DNA of 64,000 nt from Bacteroidetes bacterium UBA1941 (GTDB lineage Bacteria; Bacteroidota; Bacteroidia; Chitinophagales; LD1). The translations under genes were made by a program, and so were the position numbers. Below, in pieces: positions 38,870 to 45,630 of this stretch. Within the stretch, counting starts at the first letter, position 1. Each line of letters opens with the position of its first letter. The stretch lies in contig DDEZ01000010.1 of NCBI GenBank assembly GCA_002336805.1, positions 74,895 to 138,894 of the forward strand, in the 5' to 3' direction. The notes beneath the pieces are model-generated. The model did no database searches. It saw nothing but the letters and a program-made list of their open reading frames with translations, and was not told the origin of the DNA.

Positions 38870-41800
38870 ATGCGTACCGCATTCCGATTGGCAGCAGTTT
38901 CCTTTCTGTTTCTGCTCGCTGCCTGCAACCTGAAAAACAGAGTCAACCTAGTTTCCACCAATGCCAAAGATGAAGTGCCGGTCCTCGGCAATCTCGTCTT
39001 CACCTTTGACAAAAACCTCGTAGGCGATACTATGCTCAACGCATGGGATACCACGCAGTACATCCGCTTTGATCCGCCTATCTCCGGGCGGTTTCAGTGG
39101 ACGAGCTCATACGAGCTGACCTTCTCTCCGGATTACAGCCTCGATCCGGCCACAGACTACCACGCTGAGGTGACCAGCAAACTGACCTCACACTCGATCT
39201 ACTCAGTAGGCAAGATACCTGACATCAATTTCCATACACCCTATCAGCGGCTGGAGTCCGGCAATGCGCTCTGGACGACCATCGATGAAAGTTCGCACAC
39301 ACCTATAGGCCAGCTGGAGCTATTCTTTTTCTACAAAGTAGATCCGGCGCAGCTCAAGGATAAACTCTCTATAGAGGTGGATGGCGCCAAGGCTGACTTC
39401 AAGGTACTGACCACACAGGCCGATGAGCACATCCTGGTGAACCTGACCACGCTGAAGATAGAAGACAAGGACTACCAGATCAAAGCCACCATCGCACCGG
39501 GCATCACACCATACGGCGGCAAGACAGGCACCAAACAGCCGATAGAATACAAGACCACGCTGCAGTCGCCATACATCCTCACGGTAAATAACATCGAGGC
39601 AGAGCATGATGGCAATACCGGTACTGTACACCTCTATACCTCGCAGCAGATGCTGGAAGAAGGGCTGGACAAGGCGATCAGCTTTGACCCGGCGGTGTCA
39701 TTCAAGACGCAGGTGACGCAGGACGGCCTGATACTGACCTCAGACAAATTTGACGTGACCAAGGAGTACACGCTGACCATCAAGGCCGGTGTGAAAGGCC
39801 GGATAGGTGGTGTGCTAAAGGAGGAATACTCCCACTCTGTCGCCTTTGGCCAGCTGGAGCCGTCTATCAGGTTTACCAATCAGAAAGGCGTGTACCTGAC
39901 GCCTAAGGGCGCAAAGAACATAGAGGTGCAGATCATCAATGTGCCTCAGGTGCAGGTGAGCATCTCCAAGATATATGAGAATAACATCCTGGCCTCAGGC
40001 CGCTACAGCTACTATGATGATGACGGCGATAGCGGTGACGGCTACGTCTCTGCTGACGGTGAGCGCAACTATGGCGATAACCTGCAGGTAGGAGACAAGG
40101 TCTATGAGACCACCATCGAGACTAAGAATCTGCCTAAGAAGGGCAATAGCCGCCTGTTCAAATTTGACTTCCCTGATAAGCTGCGGGAGTACAAGGGGAT
40201 GTACAAGATCACTATCCGCTCTCAGGGGCAGTACTACCTGAATGAGAGCCGCTATGTATCGCTCTCAGATATCGGCCTGATAGCCAAAGATGGCAGGGAT
40301 AAGATGTTTGTCTTTACCAACTCTATCAAGACCGCGCAATCTATGGCTGGCGTAGCAGTATCTGTATACGGCGCTAATAACCAGGTGATGGGCACCGGCA
40401 CGACCAATAATGACGGTGTGGCTGAGATAGAGCTGAAGCACCGCGACTTCACAGGCTTTCGTCCGGCGCTGATCATAGCCAAGACACAGCAGGGAGACTT
40501 CAACTATATGCCCTTCAATACCACCCGAGTGGAGACCTCACGCTTCGAGGTAGGTGGCAAGAAGGCGAACAGTACGGGCCTTGACGCCTTTGTCTATAAT
40601 GAACGTGATATGTACCGCCCGGGTGAGACGATCCACTCCTCAGTGATCGTCCGTGACCAGCGGTGGCGGAGCCCCGGAGAGATACCGGTGCGACTGAAGT
40701 ACCTGCTGCCAAACGGCCAGGAGCTGAAGTCATATCGCAAGACGCTGAACGATGAGGGCAGCGTAGAGGTGGCGCTGGAGCTGTCTCCGGCCAGTATCAC
40801 AGGTAGCTACTCGCTGGAGGTCTACACCTCCAATGATGTGCTGCTGGCTACCAAGAATATCATGGTGGAGGAATTTATGCCGGACAGGATACGCGTGACC
40901 ACCAGCCTGGACAAGCCATACCTCAAGCCGGGCGATAAGACCAACCTGAGCATCAACGCCATGAACTTCTTCGGTCCGCCGGCGTCTAACCGCAACTATG
41001 AGGTAGAGATGCAGATCAGTGCCAAATATTTCTCACCAAAGAAGTACAGCAGCTATAGTTTCTCCCTGGCCAATCAGACCACGGAGTTCAATAAGATAGA
41101 GCGCACGGGTACTACAGATGAGAAAGGCAATGCGAGTGAGCAGTTTGAAGTGCCAAAGGAATACATCAATAACGGTGTGCTGGAGGGCGATATCTTTGCT
41201 ACGGTGTTTGACGAGTCGGGCAGGCCTGTGAGCAGGCGGTCATCGGTAGACATTTACACGCAGGATGTATTCTACGGTATGGACCGCGATGGCTACTACT
41301 ACTATCCGCTCAATCAGGTCATCAAATTTCCGCTGGTGGCGCTGAATAAGGATGAGAAACCCGTCAGCACGCAGGGCCACATCGTGGTCATCAAACATGA
41401 CTACAAGACCGTACTGAGCCGCAGCAGCGAGTATTTCCGCTATGAGTCTCAGAAGGAGGACCGCACCATCGTAGACCAGCTCATCAATATCAGCGGGGAG
41501 AATACCGTGTACTCCTTTGTGCCAAAGACACCGGGCGACTATGAGATCCGCCTGGCCAAGCCGGGTGCAGATGCCTACGTGATGTACAGTTTCTACAGCT
41601 ACGGCGGCTATGGGTATAATACGAATACATCCTTTGAGGTCAATACGGAGGGCAACATAGATATCAGCCTGGATAAGGAAAAATACAATGCGGGAGAAAC
41701 GGCCAAGGTGCTCTTCAAGGCGCCATTCAACGGTCGTATCCTCGTCACGCTGGAAAGCGACCATGTGATAGATCATTTCTATATCAATACGGACAAGCGC

Positions 41801-44269
41801 ACTGCTACTGCTACGCTGAACCTGAAAGCCGACTATGTGCCTAACGCGTACATTTCAGCTACACTGATCAAACCGCACGAGGAGACAGACCTGCCGCTGA
41901 CGGTGGCGCATGGCTACCTGCCCATCATAGTAGAGGAGAAGGCCAACAAGATCCCTGTGCAGATCATAGCGGAGAAATCTGTCCGCTCCCACACCCGCCA
42001 GAAGGTGACGGTGAAAGCCGCTCCCGGCTGCAAGATCACGCTGGCTGCGGTGGATGAAGGTATCCTCCAGATCACGGGCTACAAGACGCCTGATCCGTAT
42101 GGCTTCTTCTATCAGAAGCGTGCGCTGGATGTGAATTCATTTGACCTGTACCCACTGCTTTTCCCTGAGATAAATGGCTCTATCAGCAGCACCGGTGGTG
42201 ACGGCTCTGATATGTCTAAACGAGTGAACCCGATCAAGAACAAGCGCGTGAAACTGCTCAGCTATTGGAGCGGCATCACCCAGGCCAATGGAAGTGGCGA
42301 AGGGCGCTATGAGTTTGATATTCCGCAGTTCTCCGGAGAGGTGCGGCTCATGGCGGTGGCGTATAAGGACAAGTCCTTTGGCAGTGCCGATGCGCACATG
42401 ACGGTGGCTGACCCTATCGTGCTGGTCACCTCGCTGCCGCGCTTTATCAGTCCGCGAGATACGATAGATGTACCTGTCACTATTTCTAATACTACTACGA
42501 CTAGTACCAATGCATCTGTGACGGCCAAGGCCGAAGGGCCGATACAGTTCGTCGGCTCGGTGTCTCAGTCCGCTACTGTGAATGCGAAAGGGGAGGCGCG
42601 TGTGATGTTCCGCCTCGTGGCCAATGGTGCTCCTGACGAGGCCAAAGTAACGGTGACCGTCAATGGCGCCGGTGGCAAATATGAAGACGTGACCGATATC
42701 ACCGTACGTCCCGCAGCCTCGCTGCAAAAGGGCAATGGCAGCGGCGTGATAGATGGCGGCACGGCCAAGACCGTGGAGATAGGCGACCCGCGCTTTATCC
42801 CCGCTATGGCGGACTATAGTGTGGTGGTGAGCCGCTCGCCTATGGTGCAGTTTAGCGATCACCTCACGTACCTGGTGCAGTATCCGTATGGCTGTACGGA
42901 GCAGACGGTGTCGGCGGCTTTCCCGCAGCTGTACTTCCAGGATCTGAGCGGGCTGATGAGTCCTACTTTGGCCAAGACTGCCAACTACAACATCAATGAA
43001 GCGATCCGCAAGATCAAGATGCGCCAGCTCTACAATGGCGCGCTGACCCTCTGGGATGGCGAGGGCTCTGAGTGCTGGTGGGCCTCGGTATATGGTGCGC
43101 ACTTCCTCATAGAGGCTAAGAAGGCAGGCTATGATGTCTCTGACGACCTGCTGGACAAGCTGCTGGAGTACCTCAATGCACGCCTGCGCAATCACGACCT
43201 GATCACCTGGTACTACAACCGTGGCCTGAATAAAAAGATAGCGCCACATGAGGTAGGCTATAGCCTATATGTACTGGCCCTGGCGGGCAAGCAGGACCTG
43301 AGCACGATGAACTACTACAAGTCCAATCCGCAGCTGCTCACTACTGACTGCAAATACCTCCTCTCTGCGGCCTATGCGTTGGCGGGGGACAAGGGCAAAT
43401 ACAAGGAGATGCTGCCGTCTACATTCGTAGGTGAAGTATCTGATAAGGAGACTGGTGGCAGCTTTGCCTCTGCGGTGCGTGATGAGGCCATAGCGCTGAA
43501 TGTGCTGGCCGAGGTAGACCCGCAGAACCCGCAGATACCGATCATGTCACGGCACGTGTCAGAGTCTATCAAGCGGGAGTATTACCTGAGTACGCAGGAG
43601 CGCGTGTTCAGCTTCCTCGCCCTCGGCAAGGTGCTGCGTGCAAATGCCTCTGCGACGGTCACAGCCGATATCAAGGTGAATGGCAAGGTGGTTGGTTCTT
43701 TCACAGGGCAATCACTGAAACTCAGCAAGAAGAAACTAGGCGGCAGCAAGATAGAACTGGTGACCAAAGGCACGGGCAAGCTGTACTACTTCTACGAGAA
43801 TGAGGGCATTACGGCAGATGGCTCCTTCAAGCAGGAGGACAGTTATATCAAGGTGCGCAAGGAGTTTTATGACCGCTTCGGACATCAGCTCACGTCGCTC
43901 AATTTCAAACAGAATGACCTCGTGATCGTACGCCTGAATATAGAGAGCAGCTACAACCGGTCTATAGACAATGTGGTGATCACCGATATGCTACCGGCTG
44001 GTTTTGAGATAGAGAATCCGCGGCTGAAAGAAGTGCCGGGCATGGACTGGATCAAGGATGCGTCCACACCTACCGCCTCAGACTACCGCGACGACCGTGT
44101 CAATCTCTTCACAGACCTCTACACCGGCCGTCCGCAGCACTACTACTATGCCGTGCGCTGTGTCAGCCCGGGTGCCTTTATCATGGGGCCTGTGATGGCA
44201 GATGCCATGTATGCGGGTGAGTATCACTCCTACAATGGTGGGGGAGTGGTACGGATCACGCAGAAGTAG
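38870..44269 (+). CDS. bacterial alpha-2-macroglobulin family lipoprotein with thioester motif
   Basis: 1799 aa. Lipobox LFLLLAAC. Repeated MG-domain beta patterns. Thioester GCTEQ at codons 1341-1345 (nt 42890-42904) within QYPYGCTEQTVSAAFPQLY. The downstream alpha-helical TED part and C-terminal receptor-binding-like domain resemble YfhM/ECAM. Confidence 0.9.
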   Translation: MRTAFRLAAVSFLFLLAACNLKNRVNLVSTNAKDEVPVLGNLVFTFDKNLVGDTMLNAWDTTQYIRFDPPISGRFQWTSSYELTFSPDYSLDPATDYHAEVTSKLTSHSIYSVGKIPDINFHTPYQRLESGNALWTTIDESSHTPIGQLELFFFYKVDPAQLKDKLSIEVDGAKADFKVLTTQADEHILVNLTTLKIEDKDYQIKATIAPGITPYGGKTGTKQPIEYKTTLQSPYILTVNNIEAEHDGNTGTVHLYTSQQMLEEGLDKAISFDPAVSFKTQVTQDGLILTSDKFDVTKEYTLTIKAGVKGRIGGVLKEEYSHSVAFGQLEPSIRFTNQKGVYLTPKGAKNIEVQIINVPQVQVSISKIYENNILASGRYSYYDDDGDSGDGYVSADGERNYGDNLQVGDKVYETTIETKNLPKKGNSRLFKFDFPDKLREYKGMYKITIRSQGQYYLNESRYVSLSDIGLIAKDGRDKMFVFTNSIKTAQSMAGVAVSVYGANNQVMGTGTTNNDGVAEIELKHRDFTGFRPALIIAKTQQGDFNYMPFNTTRVETSRFEVGGKKANSTGLDAFVYNERDMYRPGETIHSSVIVRDQRWRSPGEIPVRLKYLLPNGQELKSYRKTLNDEGSVEVALELSPASITGSYSLEVYTSNDVLLATKNIMVEEFMPDRIRVTTSLDKPYLKPGDKTNLSINAMNFFGPPASNRNYEVEMQISAKYFSPKKYSSYSFSLANQTTEFNKIERTGTTDEKGNASEQFEVPKEYINNGVLEGDIFATVFDESGRPVSRRSSVDIYTQDVFYGMDRDGYYYYPLNQVIKFPLVALNKDEKPVSTQGHIVVIKHDYKTVLSRSSEYFRYESQKEDRTIVDQLINISGENTVYSFVPKTPGDYEIRLAKPGADAYVMYSFYSYGGYGYNTNTSFEVNTEGNIDISLDKEKYNAGETAKVLFKAPFNGRILVTLESDHVIDHFYINTDKRTATATLNLKADYVPNAYISATLIKPHEETDLPLTVAHGYLPIIVEEKANKIPVQIIAEKSVRSHTRQKVTVKAAPGCKITLAAVDEGILQITGYKTPDPYGFFYQKRALDVNSFDLYPLLFPEINGSISSTGGDGSDMSKRVNPIKNKRVKLLSYWSGITQANGSGEGRYEFDIPQFSGEVRLMAVAYKDKSFGSADAHMTVADPIVLVTSLPRFISPRDTIDVPVTISNTTTTSTNASVTAKAEGPIQFVGSVSQSATVNAKGEARVMFRLVANGAPDEAKVTVTVNGAGGKYEDVTDITVRPAASLQKGNGSGVIDGGTAKTVEIGDPRFIPAMADYSVVVSRSPMVQFSDHLTYLVQYPYGCTEQTVSAAFPQLYFQDLSGLMSPTLAKTANYNINEAIRKIKMRQLYNGALTLWDGEGSECWWASVYGAHFLIEAKKAGYDVSDDLLDKLLEYLNARLRNHDLITWYYNRGLNKKIAPHEVGYSLYVLALAGKQDLSTMNYYKSNPQLLTTDCKYLLSAAYALAGDKGKYKEMLPSTFVGEVSDKETGGSFASAVRDEAIALNVLAEVDPQNPQIPIMSRHVSESIKREYYLSTQERVFSFLALGKVLRANASATVTADIKVNGKVVGSFTGQSLKLSKKKLGGSKIELVTKGTGKLYYFYENEGITADGSFKQEDSYIKVRKEFYDRFGHQLTSLNFKQNDLVIVRLNIESSYNRSIDNVVITDMLPAGFEIENPRLKEVPGMDWIKDASTPTASDYRDDRVNLFTDLYTGRPQHYYYAVRCVSPGAFIMGPVMADAMYAGEYHSYNGGGVVRITQK

Positions 44270-44280
44270 GCTTACGAGGC

Positions 44281-44322
44281 CGTATCGCGACCCTGTTTCC
44301 TAGCAAACAGATACGCGATACG
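44281..44322. repeat. stem-loop H1 with conserved GTTT-CCTAGC-AAAC apex
   Basis: Outer stem cgtatcgcg (44281-89) / cgcgatacg (44314-22), inner stem ctgttt / aaacag, loop cctagc (44299-44304). Confidence 0.6.
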
Positions 44323-44335
44323 ATAAGCTGATACT

Positions 44336-44376
44336 GTTTCCAGTTTCCGTTTCCTATGCAAACGGAAACCGGAAAC
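44336..44376. repeat. stem-loop H2 with conserved GTTT-CCTATGC-AAAC apex
   Basis: gtttccagtttccgttt (44336-52) pairs with aaacggaaaccggaaac (44360-76): 17 bp with one A.C mismatch, loop cctatgc. Confidence 0.6.
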
Positions 44377-44446
44377 CATGGTCGTACACCGTGCTCGTTT
44401 CATAGTAAAAGTGGACGATGGACTTGCTGACCTTACCCGTGCCTTA

Positions 44447-44497
44447 CGTTGTTGTTCGTTGGTTTTTCCTAGCAAATACCAACGAACAACAACAACG
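44447..44497. repeat. stem-loop H3 with conserved TTTT-CCTAGC-AAAT apex
   Basis: cgttgttgttcgttggt (44447-63) pairs with accaacgaacaacaacaacg (44478-97), leaving one extra GTT unit as a bulge. The apex contains cctagc (44468-73). Confidence 0.6.
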
Positions 44498-44745
44498 GCT
44501 CTAACGATCTTCCTTTTGTGAATAACTACTCGCTTATTTATATGGTTAAATTGGCTAAAAATGCTATATTTGCATATTATTGAAAGCGAACTGATATACT
44601 TATATATAGGTGTATATGGGTAGGTATTTTACTGAAAAGAGTAAAAGCTTTTGAGATTTGCACGAAGTGCTATGCAAAGTCTGTATCAAGCCTGACGGCT
44701 TATTGATATGGACTTTTTTTATTTGATAAAGCCTTGACTCGGCTT

Positions 44746-44799
44746 GTACCCGTTTCCAGTTGTCCCAGCTTCACGGCGTGGGAAACAGGAAACGGGTAC
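44746..44799. repeat. stem-loop H4 sharing the CGTTTCCAG arm word with H2
   Basis: gtacccgtttcc (44746-57) / ggaaacgggtac (44788-99) is a perfect 12 bp. The inner stem tccca / tggga is imperfect. Confidence 0.5.
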
Positions 44800-44865
44800 G
44801 TCGCTCTCGTCAGGCTGGTGTGTCAGTGAGAAATTTCTTTTGACTAAACGCTTGCAAACAAGAGC

Positions 44866-45054
44866 GCGTCATTCCGAAGTTTTTCCAATCAATAAAAAAT
44901 AGACGTGATAAAACTGACCTGTCCCGCACCTCTGGTCGGGAAGGAATCCCCGAATACACAAATGACGGTGAGCGCATCACTGGCCCTGTTGAGGTTTGGG
45001 ATTCCTTCGAAAATAACGCTCCTATTTCTTACGGGAATTTTCTCGGAATGACGC
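44866..45054. repeat. nested long-range inverted repeat (MITE-like element or structured RNA), about 190 bp
   Basis: The outer arms gcgtcattccgaag (44866-79) and ctcggaatgacgc (45042-54) pair over 11-12 bp. The inner arms aaggaatccc (44941-50) and gggattcctt (44998-45007) are a perfect 10 bp. Confidence 0.45.
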
Positions 45055-45143
45055 CCTTTGATTTGTGCCATATACTTGGAGAAAGGGAATAACTCTCTAT
45101 CTGACTCCTTGTGAAATCGGTAAAATCCGTAAATCAATAAATA

Positions 45144-45584
45144 CTACTTGCTGCCAATGAATAGCTTCTCCTGGCCATAGTCTACCACCACATTGTGGAG
45201 CTTCAGCAGGTCGGAGCCGAGGATGCCGTCTATCTTTTTGATCTTCATCTTGCGGTAGGTGCCATTCACATGGCTCAGGTCCACGCCGGCTACGAAGTAT
45301 TGGGAGATATTGAGGTCGCCTATGGTGAGTTTTTTGAGCGTACCGGTGTAGGACTCCATCACCGTGCTGTGCAGGCCGGTGGTCTCCTGCTTGATCACCT
45401 TCATCTTGCGCGCCAGCTTGGTCTCGTAAAAGGTCTTGTCTATCACAGACTTTGATGCGCCGGTATCTATGAGAAAGCGGCATTTTTTGCCCTCTACAGT
45501 CACAGTGATAAAAGGGTGGTAGCCACCGCCCATCATTTCTGATACAGTGAATTTGATGCCTTTCGGCTTGGTTGTTTTTGCCAT
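45144..45584 (-). CDS. retropepsin-like (clan AA) single-domain aspartic protease
   Basis: 146 aa. FLIDTGASKSVID contains the D-T-G catalytic triad in the retropepsin context. GILGSDLL is a flap/dimer-interface-like block. No signal peptide. Confidence 0.8.
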   Translation of the reverse strand: MAKTTKPKGIKFTVSEMMGGGYHPFITVTVEGKKCRFLIDTGASKSVIDKTFYETKLARKMKVIKQETTGLHSTVMESYTGTLKKLTIGDLNISQYFVAGVDLSHVNGTYRKMKIKKIDGILGSDLLKLHNVVVDYGQEKLFIGSK

Positions 45585-45595
45585 TTGAGCTGGAT

Positions 45596-45630
45596 AAAAT
45601 AAAAAAGACCGTATATGTGAATATACGGCC
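45596..45630 (-). terminator. rho-independent terminator of mdh
   Basis: The minus strand reads ggccgtata ttcaca tatacggtc: a 9 bp stem including one G.U pair, followed by TTTTTTATTTT. It lies 22 nt after the mdh stop. Confidence 0.65.

Follow-up and report, generated by a model that had tools for sequence, protein, structure and literature searches.

A tract of hairpins downstream of an alpha-2-macroglobulin (A2M) gene, at positions 44281-44816, was analyzed in a 64,000-nt stretch of contig DDEZ01000010.1 of Bacteroidetes bacterium UBA1941; this whole stretch is called the window in the following. The hairpins of the tract are members of a family of DNA palindromes whose home site is directly behind the helicase gene of a helicase-primase pair, and this physical association is solid. 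As to their function, the palindromes may be origin hairpins that resemble iterons and single-strand initiation (ssi) signals, and the window tract would then be an orphan module without a rep gene. Judged from sequence features, this functional model has about an even chance of being correct.

Palindrome design and the window hairpins

The family was defined by an alignment of 29 hairpins from this genome and its sister species, which was centred on the dyad and in which MAFFT introduced no gaps. The set was later extended to 90 distinct sites. The left arm consensus was found to be nnnTGTTnCnCGTTCCTTTTTCCT, which consists of two 7-nt words YGTTnnn and the apex word GTTTSCT as the third word. 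In the 90 sites, G was found at columns 5 and 12 with a frequency of 88% and 98%, respectively, followed by a T in 83% and 81% and then by a T or an A. The three variable positions of the words change together in both words of one arm and in the opposite arm. The sequence-only reading, an earlier interpretation of this DNA, had stated that the stems share no sequence. This is contradicted by the 29-site and 90-site alignments, since the arms are built from two or three of these words. The outer arm ends (columns 1-4) were the most variable part of the 90-site alignment, and no conserved GTAG/CGTC tetranucleotide was found at the palindrome end.

Every loop contains the trinucleotide YTR (CTA, TTA or CTG), and the loop is nearly invariant over dozens of independent stem types. 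A YTR core resembles the initiation trinucleotides of DnaG primases. In the 29 seed hairpins, 92% of the cells were paired compared to 66% in shuffles, and 16 of 18 pairs were changed on both sides. The earlier suggestion of selection on structure and loop identity is supported, as a constraint on palindromy and on the identity of the apex.

Full compensation in the stems fits an RNA helix and any DNA palindrome alike, whereas the types of mismatches discriminate between the two. For the 13 outer stem pairs of the 90 sites, read on the strand defined by the loop, 1105 Watson-Crick, 20 G.U, 25 A.C and 20 other pairs were counted. Since no strand prefers wobble pairs, the constraint acts on the DNA palindrome. 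The RNA readings considered before (a stabiliser in the 3' untranslated region, a processing site or a small-RNA family) are contradicted by these counts. They are also contradicted by loops that flip over fixed stems and by the Alistipes relatives, in which one member of every hairpin pair falls within protein-coding sequence. No curated Rfam family was matched; a permissive scan of 43800-45600 returned chance-level matches of the miRNA type, far below the gathering scores. A structured RNA family was rejected on both grounds, the missing Rfam match and the missing bias of G.U over A.C.

Four hairpins (H1 to H4) had been described in the window before. All of them are present and fold far better than dinucleotide shuffles. 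The features of the tract and its neighbours are:

38870..44269, + strand: A2M gene from the list of open reading frames (ORFs), upstream neighbour outside the element
44281..44322, + strand: H1, family hairpin with the stem word CGTATCGCG..CTGTTT and the loop CCTAGC
44336..44376, + strand: H2, family hairpin with the stem (GTTTCC)x3 and the loop CCTATGC
~44381..44426, + strand: decayed family member with the apex TTTCATAGTAAA and the mismatched arms GTCGTACACCGTGCTCG / GTGGACGATGGAC; direct-repeat family D3
44447..44497, + strand: H3, family hairpin with the stem GTTGTTGTTCGTTGG and the loop CCTAGC
44515..44572, + strand: promoter-like module, TTTGTGAATAA (44515-44525), 39 nt and TAtaTTTG (44565-44572, Bacteroidota -7 box)
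44578..44722, + strand: AT-rich core with 31% G+C and a putative transcript of ~145 nt
44730..44816, + strand: H4 module, outer stem of 44730-44738 with 44809-44816 (AGCCTTGAC/GTCAGGCT) around the hairpin 44746-44799
44855..45065, no strand: nested inverted repeat (inverted repeats I2 and I15), similar to a miniature inverted-repeat transposable element (MITE), of a separate repeat family; it abuts the unit

Folded as RNA of the + strand, H1, H2, H3 and H4 reached energies of -20.0, -20.2, -29.2 and -37.6 kcal/mol, respectively. The corresponding z-scores against dinucleotide shuffles were -4.5, -4.6, -7.5 and -6.3, and the values for the - strand were similar. The near-identical apex was confirmed for H1 to H3, which share approximately TTTC-CTAG-YAAA. 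The apex word TTTCCTAGCAAA (at most one mismatch) occurs four times in the window compared to 0.28 expected occurrences. With R1, a covariance model built from the 29 seeds, H1 scored 53.6 bits on the + strand and 32.0 bits on the - strand, H2 34.3, H3 58.6 and H4 21.5 bits. H4 is family-like and has a larger apex without CTAG; its GTTTCC-type words bear out the proposed reuse of the H2 arm word. The recurrence of CTATGCAAA at 44670-44678 was found as described, but the word falls in the small-RNA-like core, and no link to the family was seen.

The hairpins have relatives elsewhere in this genome (G000, with the contigs C2 to C12 cited here). A paralogue of H1 is located at C6:150787. H2 is 91-93% identical to C12:878870-878914 and C12:879503-879546, the hairpins around the cargo behind the RepA-like helicase gene on C12. 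The window copy of the decayed member falls below the R1 threshold, while its paralogue on C6 scores 33.6 bits. The H3 stem type was also found behind a RepA-like gene in the sister genome G003.

Two further classes were rejected, in agreement with what had been concluded before. Intrinsic terminators do not fit because there is no T-run after H1 to H3, while A/T-flanked terminators are common elsewhere in the genome, and a terminator scan of 44200-45200 returned 0 sites. Ordinary terminators with A-run, hairpin and T-run account for 248 of the 675 strong hairpins of this genome. The irregular spacing argues against a CRISPR or tandem array.

Helicase and primase genes at the family sites

The family sites of this genome cluster at about a dozen loci, three of which adjoin paralogous RepA-like genes. 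The encoded proteins are 340-370 aa in length, carry the Pfam domain AAA_25 and a C-terminal helix-turn-helix (HTH), and match the helicase, primase-helicase and DnaB-like families of PHROGs. Among this genome and the compared genomes of the genus (G001-G010), two to three copies were found in exactly the hairpin-rich genomes. G006 has two copies and G002 one, and none was found in G004, G007, G008 and G010. The 3' flank is intact in 13 RepA-like genes, and each of these is followed by a family hairpin with stem words of its own, at an offset of -1 to +14 nt from the stop codon. The offset of -1 belongs to the L080/L096 hairpin (TGTTGTTGTTTGTTGGTTTTTCCTAGC...), which has the stem type of H3, and was +4 in a rescan.

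Where a second hairpin is present in this genus, it lies 650-990 nt further on and shows the same words with the loop inverted. Such inverted pairs were found in this genome at C6:205513/206442 and C12:878866/879502. Diverse cargo is located between the paired hairpins, namely Schlafen/AlbA_2, DUF5677, GIY-YIG and proteins without family match. Beyond the second hairpin there is usually a gene for a protein of 310-330 aa with the Pfam domains Zn_ribbon_16 and DUF6371. The predicted structure of the DUF6371 protein (pLDDT 90.9) had only DnaG, T7 gp4, T4 or Twinkle primases among its top 38 PDB matches; the model thus assigns a DnaG-type primase fold to this gene.

Searches with the RepA-like protein against plasmid and phage records gave no match, PDB sequence searches with the RepA-like and DUF6371 proteins gave nothing useful, and PADLOC returned only weak matches at the P-loop level. 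No literature on the helicase-primase pair was found; one paper mentions DUF6371 in passing. No integrase was seen near the modules examined, and the window copy has no rep gene within the window. As a separate observation, the whole module of RepA, hairpin, GIY-YIG, hairpin and primase at C12:877503-880893 has the opposite orientation to its counterpart at C25:1557-5762 of G005 (L048), with the response-regulator gene that flanks both as the reference; the G005 module contains one extra cargo gene.

An alignment of the 13 RepA-like proteins retrieved 80 loci throughout the phylum, which span Chitinophagaceae, Saprospiraceae, Sphingobacteriales, Pontibacter, Mucilaginibacter and many genomes of Alistipes/Rikenellaceae. 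Nearly all of these loci have the primase gene behind the helicase gene. In 37 of the 80 loci, a word-repeat hairpin was found at most 40 nt from the helicase stop codon. Within the Alistipes group, almost every element has stems of its own (TGTACATACATACA, CCGTACGAACGTACA, TTGTCCATCCATCCA, GGATTTGGAAATTTGGAAAT and others), and the loop is nearly invariant (CCCTATG). A second hairpin with the same words is located 200-520 nt downstream in Alistipes and 200-990 nt downstream overall. The loop was inverted in 11 of the 14 pairs identified phylum-wide, direct in none and ambiguous in three.

At the Alistipes locus L116, the element consists of the two genes alone between host genes, and the 70-nt gap that follows the helicase stop codon is taken up by the first hairpin. 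The second one is contained in the primase ORF, where it falls in the linker behind the zinc ribbon (L116 3869-4200, from an Alistipes metagenome-assembled genome); the same was found at nine other Alistipes loci. Owing to this location, the linker peptide changes with the stem words of the element. Between the two Alistipes hairpins lies the 5' part of the primase gene with an AT-rich palindrome. A second model (R2), built on Alistipes-type hairpins, gave matches in 9 of 9 Alistipes genomes, mostly as (+)/(-) pairs 280-520 nt apart with few orphan sites. Read from the match list, there were 15 (+)/(-) pairs, 0-4 per genome, and one (-)/(+) pair in G345.

The inverted pairs could also be recombination sites, at which identical palindromes of the inverton or attC type bound a segment that is inverted, excised or exchanged, with the solo hairpins of the window as scars. 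The pairs with the same words indeed bracket variable cargo (Schlafen/AlbA_2, DUF5677, GIY-YIG and unknown proteins). Cassette-like strings of genes and hairpins, loop flips and the inversion of the RepA-to-primase module against the response-regulator gene between G000 and G005 point in the same direction. Against this, the inverted module does not end at family hairpins, and in Alistipes an inversion between the paired hairpins would disrupt the primase gene. No recombinase gene was seen beside the modules examined; an integron integrase was not searched for. Integron attC sites in particular were rejected because the arms (5' YGTTnnn and 3' nnnAACR) have the reverse polarity to the attC core sites RYYYAAC...GTTRRRY and the paired hairpins are inverted, not direct. 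Recombination sites are therefore regarded as very unlikely.

A relation between the stem words and the HTH of the neighbouring helicase was analyzed with 39 helicase/hairpin pairs and three distances (stem word, HTH recognition helix and ATPase core). The distances of stem word and recognition helix, with the ATPase core controlled, gave a partial Mantel r of 0.24 (p 0.0002) compared to 0.07 for the converse, a signal that linkage of HTH and hairpin could give as well. Recognition helices of the type [KR]G[ST]..KL[FL] were found together with GTTTCC words in five distant elements (L064, L085, L088, L098 and L100); the listed pairs have core distances of 0.41-0.44. This pairing of helix and word seems to extend to L092 and L099, whose hairpins are further from the stop codon and outside the test set. 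For L098 and L102, the helicase cores are 98% identical, while both the helices and the words differ.

The position behind stop codons also suits transcription barriers or module insulators, that is, terminators without U-tract or protectors of mRNA 3'-ends that are carried with gene cassettes, with the apex as an RNA loop that is stable or bound by protein. They would be comparable to the promoter/stem-loop cassettes of T4-type phages. Many hairpins lie co-oriented 4-15 nt past a stop codon (A2M, the RepA-like genes, the stress-protein gene C6:159297 and a retropepsin gene in G005), and the window hairpins stand where G008 has a classical terminator. Small accessory cassettes are bracketed by hairpins as well, such as a toxin-antitoxin-like pair at C7:409.7-411.1k, recognized by eye, and ORF129 in G005. 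On the other hand, the family hairpins have no T-run in a genome that widely uses T-run terminators (248 of 675 strong hairpins), and the 20 G.U and 25 A.C pairs show no bias towards an RNA helix. The distal hairpin of a pair often precedes a cargo gene rather than following it, and the second hairpin in Alistipes is within the primase reading frame. Rows of 4-5 hairpins and tandem arrays of ~143 bp are moreover more than a terminator needs. Taken together, a role as barrier is rather improbable.

The composite unit and its turnover

In the window, the hairpins are part of a composite unit of ~570 nt, which consists of the hairpin set, the AT-rich core with its promoter and H4, and is present in four copies in the genome. 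BLAST of 44200-45200 against the whole genome showed that 44275-44840 recurs at C6:150784-151396 (85% identity), C5:151160-150445 and C5:187500-187004. Sister genomes contain 2-7 copies each, often at contig ends; tracts of the family would explain assembly breaks in this clade. The layout of the copies is constant, with 2-6 family hairpins whose identities vary per copy, the AT-rich core and H4 within its outer stem. This outer stem changes on both sides among the copies (AGCCTTGAC/GTCAGGCT, GGTCCTCGC/GCAGGACC and AGTCC..CG/CG..GGACT). H4 also occurs as solo copies. It has 6-mers in common with the upstream hairpins in 9 of 13 core copies, a weak support that does not extend to the GTTCAC variant.

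The G+C content of the core was 31-38% among the copies (0.31 in the window) compared to about 0.50 in the flanks. The promoter module TTTGTGAATAA-N39-TAtaTTTG is followed by an AT-rich palindrome, a small hairpin and a terminator-like hairpin (44676-44716) with seven T (44714-44720); the fold of the core has a z-score of -4.0. Among the copies in sister genomes the core is 70-94% conserved, and its 3' part occurs in three alternative forms. One of these stems from an inserted palindromic element that is also present elsewhere in the genome. A scan for sigma-70 promoters was uninformative for Bacteroidota promoters. The pattern TTTGTG[AC][AG]TAA-N30-55-TAnnTTTG has seven matches in the genome, namely the four core copies, one upstream of the RepA-like gene C6:160155 and two elsewhere on C2. 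A small protein was rejected as product of the core, as the ATG of the 20-codon ORF from 44562 is not conserved in other copies. A kinship of the core with the spacers of the ~143-bp arrays on C6 was also rejected (no significant similarity at word size 9).

Over all genomes, with both strands included in the counts, R1 gave 53 matches in G000 (~35 distinct sites), 43 in G009, 35 in G003, 25 in G005, 11 in G001 and two weak ones in G006. The genome-wide search proposed with the sequence-only reading thus shows that the motif is not confined to the locus. R1 detected the family in just those 5-6 sister species in which a RepA-like gene is present as well. No R1 matches were found in G002, G004, G007, G008 and G010, nor in 300 other Bacteroidota genomes, where stricter filters were used and weak matches may be lost.

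The A2M orthologues in nine genomes of the genus have entirely different 3' flanks. In G008 (A2M 83% identical), the spacer of ~150 nt between the A2M and retropepsin genes contains a terminator with A-run, hairpin and T-run and no family hairpin. G003 (98%) has five wholly different hairpins followed by a core that is 89% identical, and G009 (96%) has three other hairpins and a divergent core. In G006, one other hairpin is followed by different genes. G005 (97%) has no core at this site; in place of the window tract, a 129-codon ORF without Pfam match is located between two hairpins of one type (CGTCCCGCGTCCCCGT; L024 2230-2619). The stems and flanks of the first hairpin are the same in G005 and G001, with the loop inverted (ACATAGGCA vs TGCTTATGT). 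One clean insertion in G009 is bounded by the 7-nt direct repeat GGACGAT. These sequence comparisons show the window tract to be an insertion with fast turnover.

The fast turnover would also be expected of selfish or neutral palindromes of the repetitive extragenic palindromic (REP) or MITE type, which have no function and spread by duplication, template switching and recombination into permissive intergenic sites and behind mobile genes. The apex would then look conserved only because the stems evolve faster, by slippage and correction within the palindrome. The family is young and restricted to one clade, the hairpin sets at orthologous sites are completely replaced, and other repeats are co-located (the nested inverted repeats at 44855-45065 and CCCTCTAAATCTCCC palindromes inserted in the core). 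The clean insertion in G009, the loop flip over unchanged stems between G005 and G001 and heptad microsatellites elsewhere in the genome fit as well. Such a spread does not account for a hairpin placed strictly behind the stop codon of RepA, in 13 of 13 cases here and in distant genera with a different loop, nor for the constant inversion of the partner (11 inverted, 0 direct), the hairpin kept inside a coding linker in Alistipes and the near-invariant loop across dozens of independent stem types. Genes for Y1 transposases associated with REP sequences (RAYT, PF01797) do not follow the distribution of the family, with one weak match (38.6 bits) in G000, none in G009 and five each in the hairpin-free G007 and G008. 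A purely selfish or neutral origin is therefore considered unlikely. The earlier comparison with protein-binding hairpins of REP sequences and bacterial interspersed mosaic elements (BIME) stands insofar as this is a repeat family of the protein-binding type in mosaic intergenic clusters with other repeat modules. It fails for REP in the strict sense, as the GTAG/CGTC tag and the tracking by RAYT are missing.

Several further repeats were observed around the family sites. The nested inverted-repeat family of the window (arms 44855-77 / 45043-65 and 44940-50 / 44998-45008) has at least eight further copies on C6, C7 and C12, several of them beside family hairpins and RepA modules. A palindromic element of ~90 nt (CCCTCCAAACCTCCCTGAAGGGAGG ... 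TCTCCCTTCAGGGAGATTTAGAGGG) is found at C6:151165-151265 and C6:207610-207700 and in the core copies G003b and C5a. It is inserted in the 3' part of some cores and in the 5' leader of a RepA-like gene, and short relatives are scattered genome-wide.

Tandem arrays of five hairpins, all with the word GGACACC and a period of ~143-150 bp, are located at C6:226849-227460 and C6:159309-160102. Their spacers are AT-rich (tatcaatga..taagcgcatttttattgata.tatatatata). One array immediately precedes a RepA-like gene without primase partner, and the other is located between a histone-like gene and ruvB. At C7:409750-411120 (L066 250-1620), five TTTTGTTCGTTCGTTCG..CTAG.. hairpins surround a small gene and a toxin-antitoxin-like pair, assigned by eye without family search, in an arrangement like a cassette string with no RepA gene nearby. 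Tandem arrays with units of 7-9 nt were found at C6:205020-205085, C6:177616-177760, C6:207900-207960 and 45117-45140 of the window. The units are (TAGGGAA)n, directly upstream of a primase gene, (GGTGGAACA)n, and (CCGTAAAT)n-like, the last also downstream of the retropepsin gene of the window. Two more REP-like palindrome families, gcatcttccctctccNNNggagagggaagaacc and GTAGGGACAGGTCGCGACCTGTCCCTAC, occur genome-wide (e.g., C7:199773, C7:508508 and C12:307864; C4:148144 and C12:318260).

Functional model and known systems

The native layout consists of the gene for the RepA-like AAA_25-HTH helicase, a hairpin, often cargo, an inverted hairpin and the gene for the DnaG-type primase. According to the functional model, the tandem 7-nt words would act like iterons, to which the cognate RepA-like protein binds as an oligomer through its HTH tails. 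If the site is unwound or extruded, each strand could form a hairpin whose single-stranded apex (C-CTA-G here, CC-CTA-TG in Alistipes) may be presented to the primase, similar to a single-strand initiation signal. The loop of the paired hairpins is the same but appears on opposite strands, so that both strands could be primed. The model would explain that the apex is constant within a clade, that the stems have only to pair and carry element-specific words, and that both hairpins of an element have their words in common.

A repeat site directly beside the helicase gene, as in iteron-type origins, was found for 13 of 13 genes in the clade and at 37 loci phylum-wide. In the window unit, hairpins lie on both sides of a core of 31% G+C, and the Alistipes pair encloses an AT-rich palindrome; in this genus, mostly cargo genes occupy the interval of a pair. 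The window tract is origin-like in its layout, with a hairpin set of several words on the left, the core with a RepA-type promoter in the middle and H4 on the right. Because this layout comes without a rep gene, the promoter recurs at C6:160155, H2 and H4 carry words of the C12 RepA and H3 has its match in G003, the tract is read as an orphan site. It may be either a non-autonomous derivative that the resident RepA and primase could use in trans, or a decaying relic.

Several observations weigh against this model. The HTH codons are less than 100 nt from the hairpin, so that joint swapping or co-inheritance could give the covariation of helix and word, and the relation is not one-to-one, as L067 and L091 have similar helices and different words. 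In this genus, mostly cargo genes and not an AT-rich tract lie between the paired hairpins. No RepA of this genome matches the words of H1, H3 and the decayed member, which make up about half of the hairpins of the window type, and about half of the RepA-like genes elsewhere in the phylum are without hairpin at the thresholds used. Many hairpins directly follow stop codons, which also fits a transcription barrier. Given the lack of a plasmid or phage match and of an integrase at the modules examined, the gene pair may be neither a replicon nor mobile.

A wider reading, which is held to be doubtful, would describe a class of minimal two-gene elements across Bacteroidota with private hairpin iterons. 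Their HTH tails would read the words by a helix-to-word code and the loop would be the primase start. Modules of the window type would be escaped origins without rep gene, acting as satellites replicated in trans or as decoys that titrate helicases. It is equally doubtful that several such elements coexist per genome in the examined Alistipes and Chitinophagaceae, with three words per arm and six per palindrome, and that orphan modules combine the words of several helicases.

If the functional model is true, the hairpins are cis-acting sites of a helicase-primase pair that spans wastewater Chitinophagaceae to gut Alistipes. Element-specific words, a clade-specific loop and an inverted pair form an unusual design and a problem of protein-DNA recognition that is open to direct test, with a possible use in Bacteroidota genetics as orthogonal pairs of origin and initiator. 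In this genus, probable defence genes (Schlafen/AlbA_2, DUF5677 and GIY-YIG) gather between the paired hairpins, which may therefore mark a cargo hotspot. For annotation, such tracts should not be called small RNAs or terminators.

Among the known systems, REP/BIME and REPIN sequences are likewise short extragenic palindromes that are clustered, mixed with other motifs, variable between strains and often located at gene ends. The present family differs by its ~35 copies only, the missing GTAG/CGTC tag and Y1 link, a conservation of the apex instead of the stem, and its anchoring to helicase-primase genes. In the inverted terminal repeat of the adeno-associated virus (AAV), the stem contains repeats of the Rep-binding tetramer GAGC, the loop tip is contacted, and flip and flop orientations occur; the repeat is bound by an oligomeric initiator-helicase. 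A stem of tandem short words, a conserved tip element and flip/flop loop orientations are found here as well. However, the AAV protein is an HUH-SF3 Rep compared to AAA_25-HTH here, and the context here is a bacterial chromosome with no nicking site and no linear ends.

In staphylococcal pathogenicity islands and phage-inducible chromosomal islands (SaPI/PICI), the pri-rep-ori region has a helicase-initiator gene directly followed by its own origin, in which short element-specific repeats surround an AT-rich stretch, with the primase gene adjacent. The specificity region of the initiator and the repeats vary per element. The present elements are similar in the rep gene followed by a repeat site, the primase next door and the element-specific repeats, and the window unit also has an AT-rich stretch between its hairpins. 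The present elements differ in the order helicase, site and primase, and in the helicase, which is AAA_25/RecA-like with a C-terminal HTH. The repeats here are long perfect palindromes with a clade-constant asymmetric apex, arranged as an inverted pair. In addition, no integrase or packaging genes were seen, many chromosomal copies are without rep gene, and replication is a prediction here.

At the ori and crr sites of the satellite phage P4, the C-terminal domain of the alpha primase-helicase binds octamer iterons of the TGTTCACC type at two cis sites. A helicase with its own DNA-binding tail and short repeated words at two cis sites are common to both systems, the binding here being presumed, and words such as TGTTCAC and CGTTCACC are among the stems. 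Unlike in P4, primase and helicase are two proteins here, and the words form palindromic hairpins whose loop is conserved. No relation to the alpha protein could be detected by sequence, with no match among phage records.

The ssiA and ssiB signals of the IncQ plasmid RSF1010, together with the complementary-strand origin of the G4 type, are hairpins on opposite strands that are read by a dedicated primase, with the RepA helicase alongside. In ssi signals, the hairpin shape and a few single-stranded bases outweigh the stem sequence. Differences to RSF1010 are the primase, which is of the DnaG/Toprim type here and of the RepB' type there, and the lack of a separate iteron-binding initiator analogous to RepC. 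Here, both hairpins share element-specific word-repeat stems, are 200-990 nt apart and enclose genes or are intragenic. The likeness consists in the hairpins on opposite strands of one candidate origin (11 pairs inverted, 0 direct and 3 ambiguous) and in the adjacent genes for a helicase and a primase.

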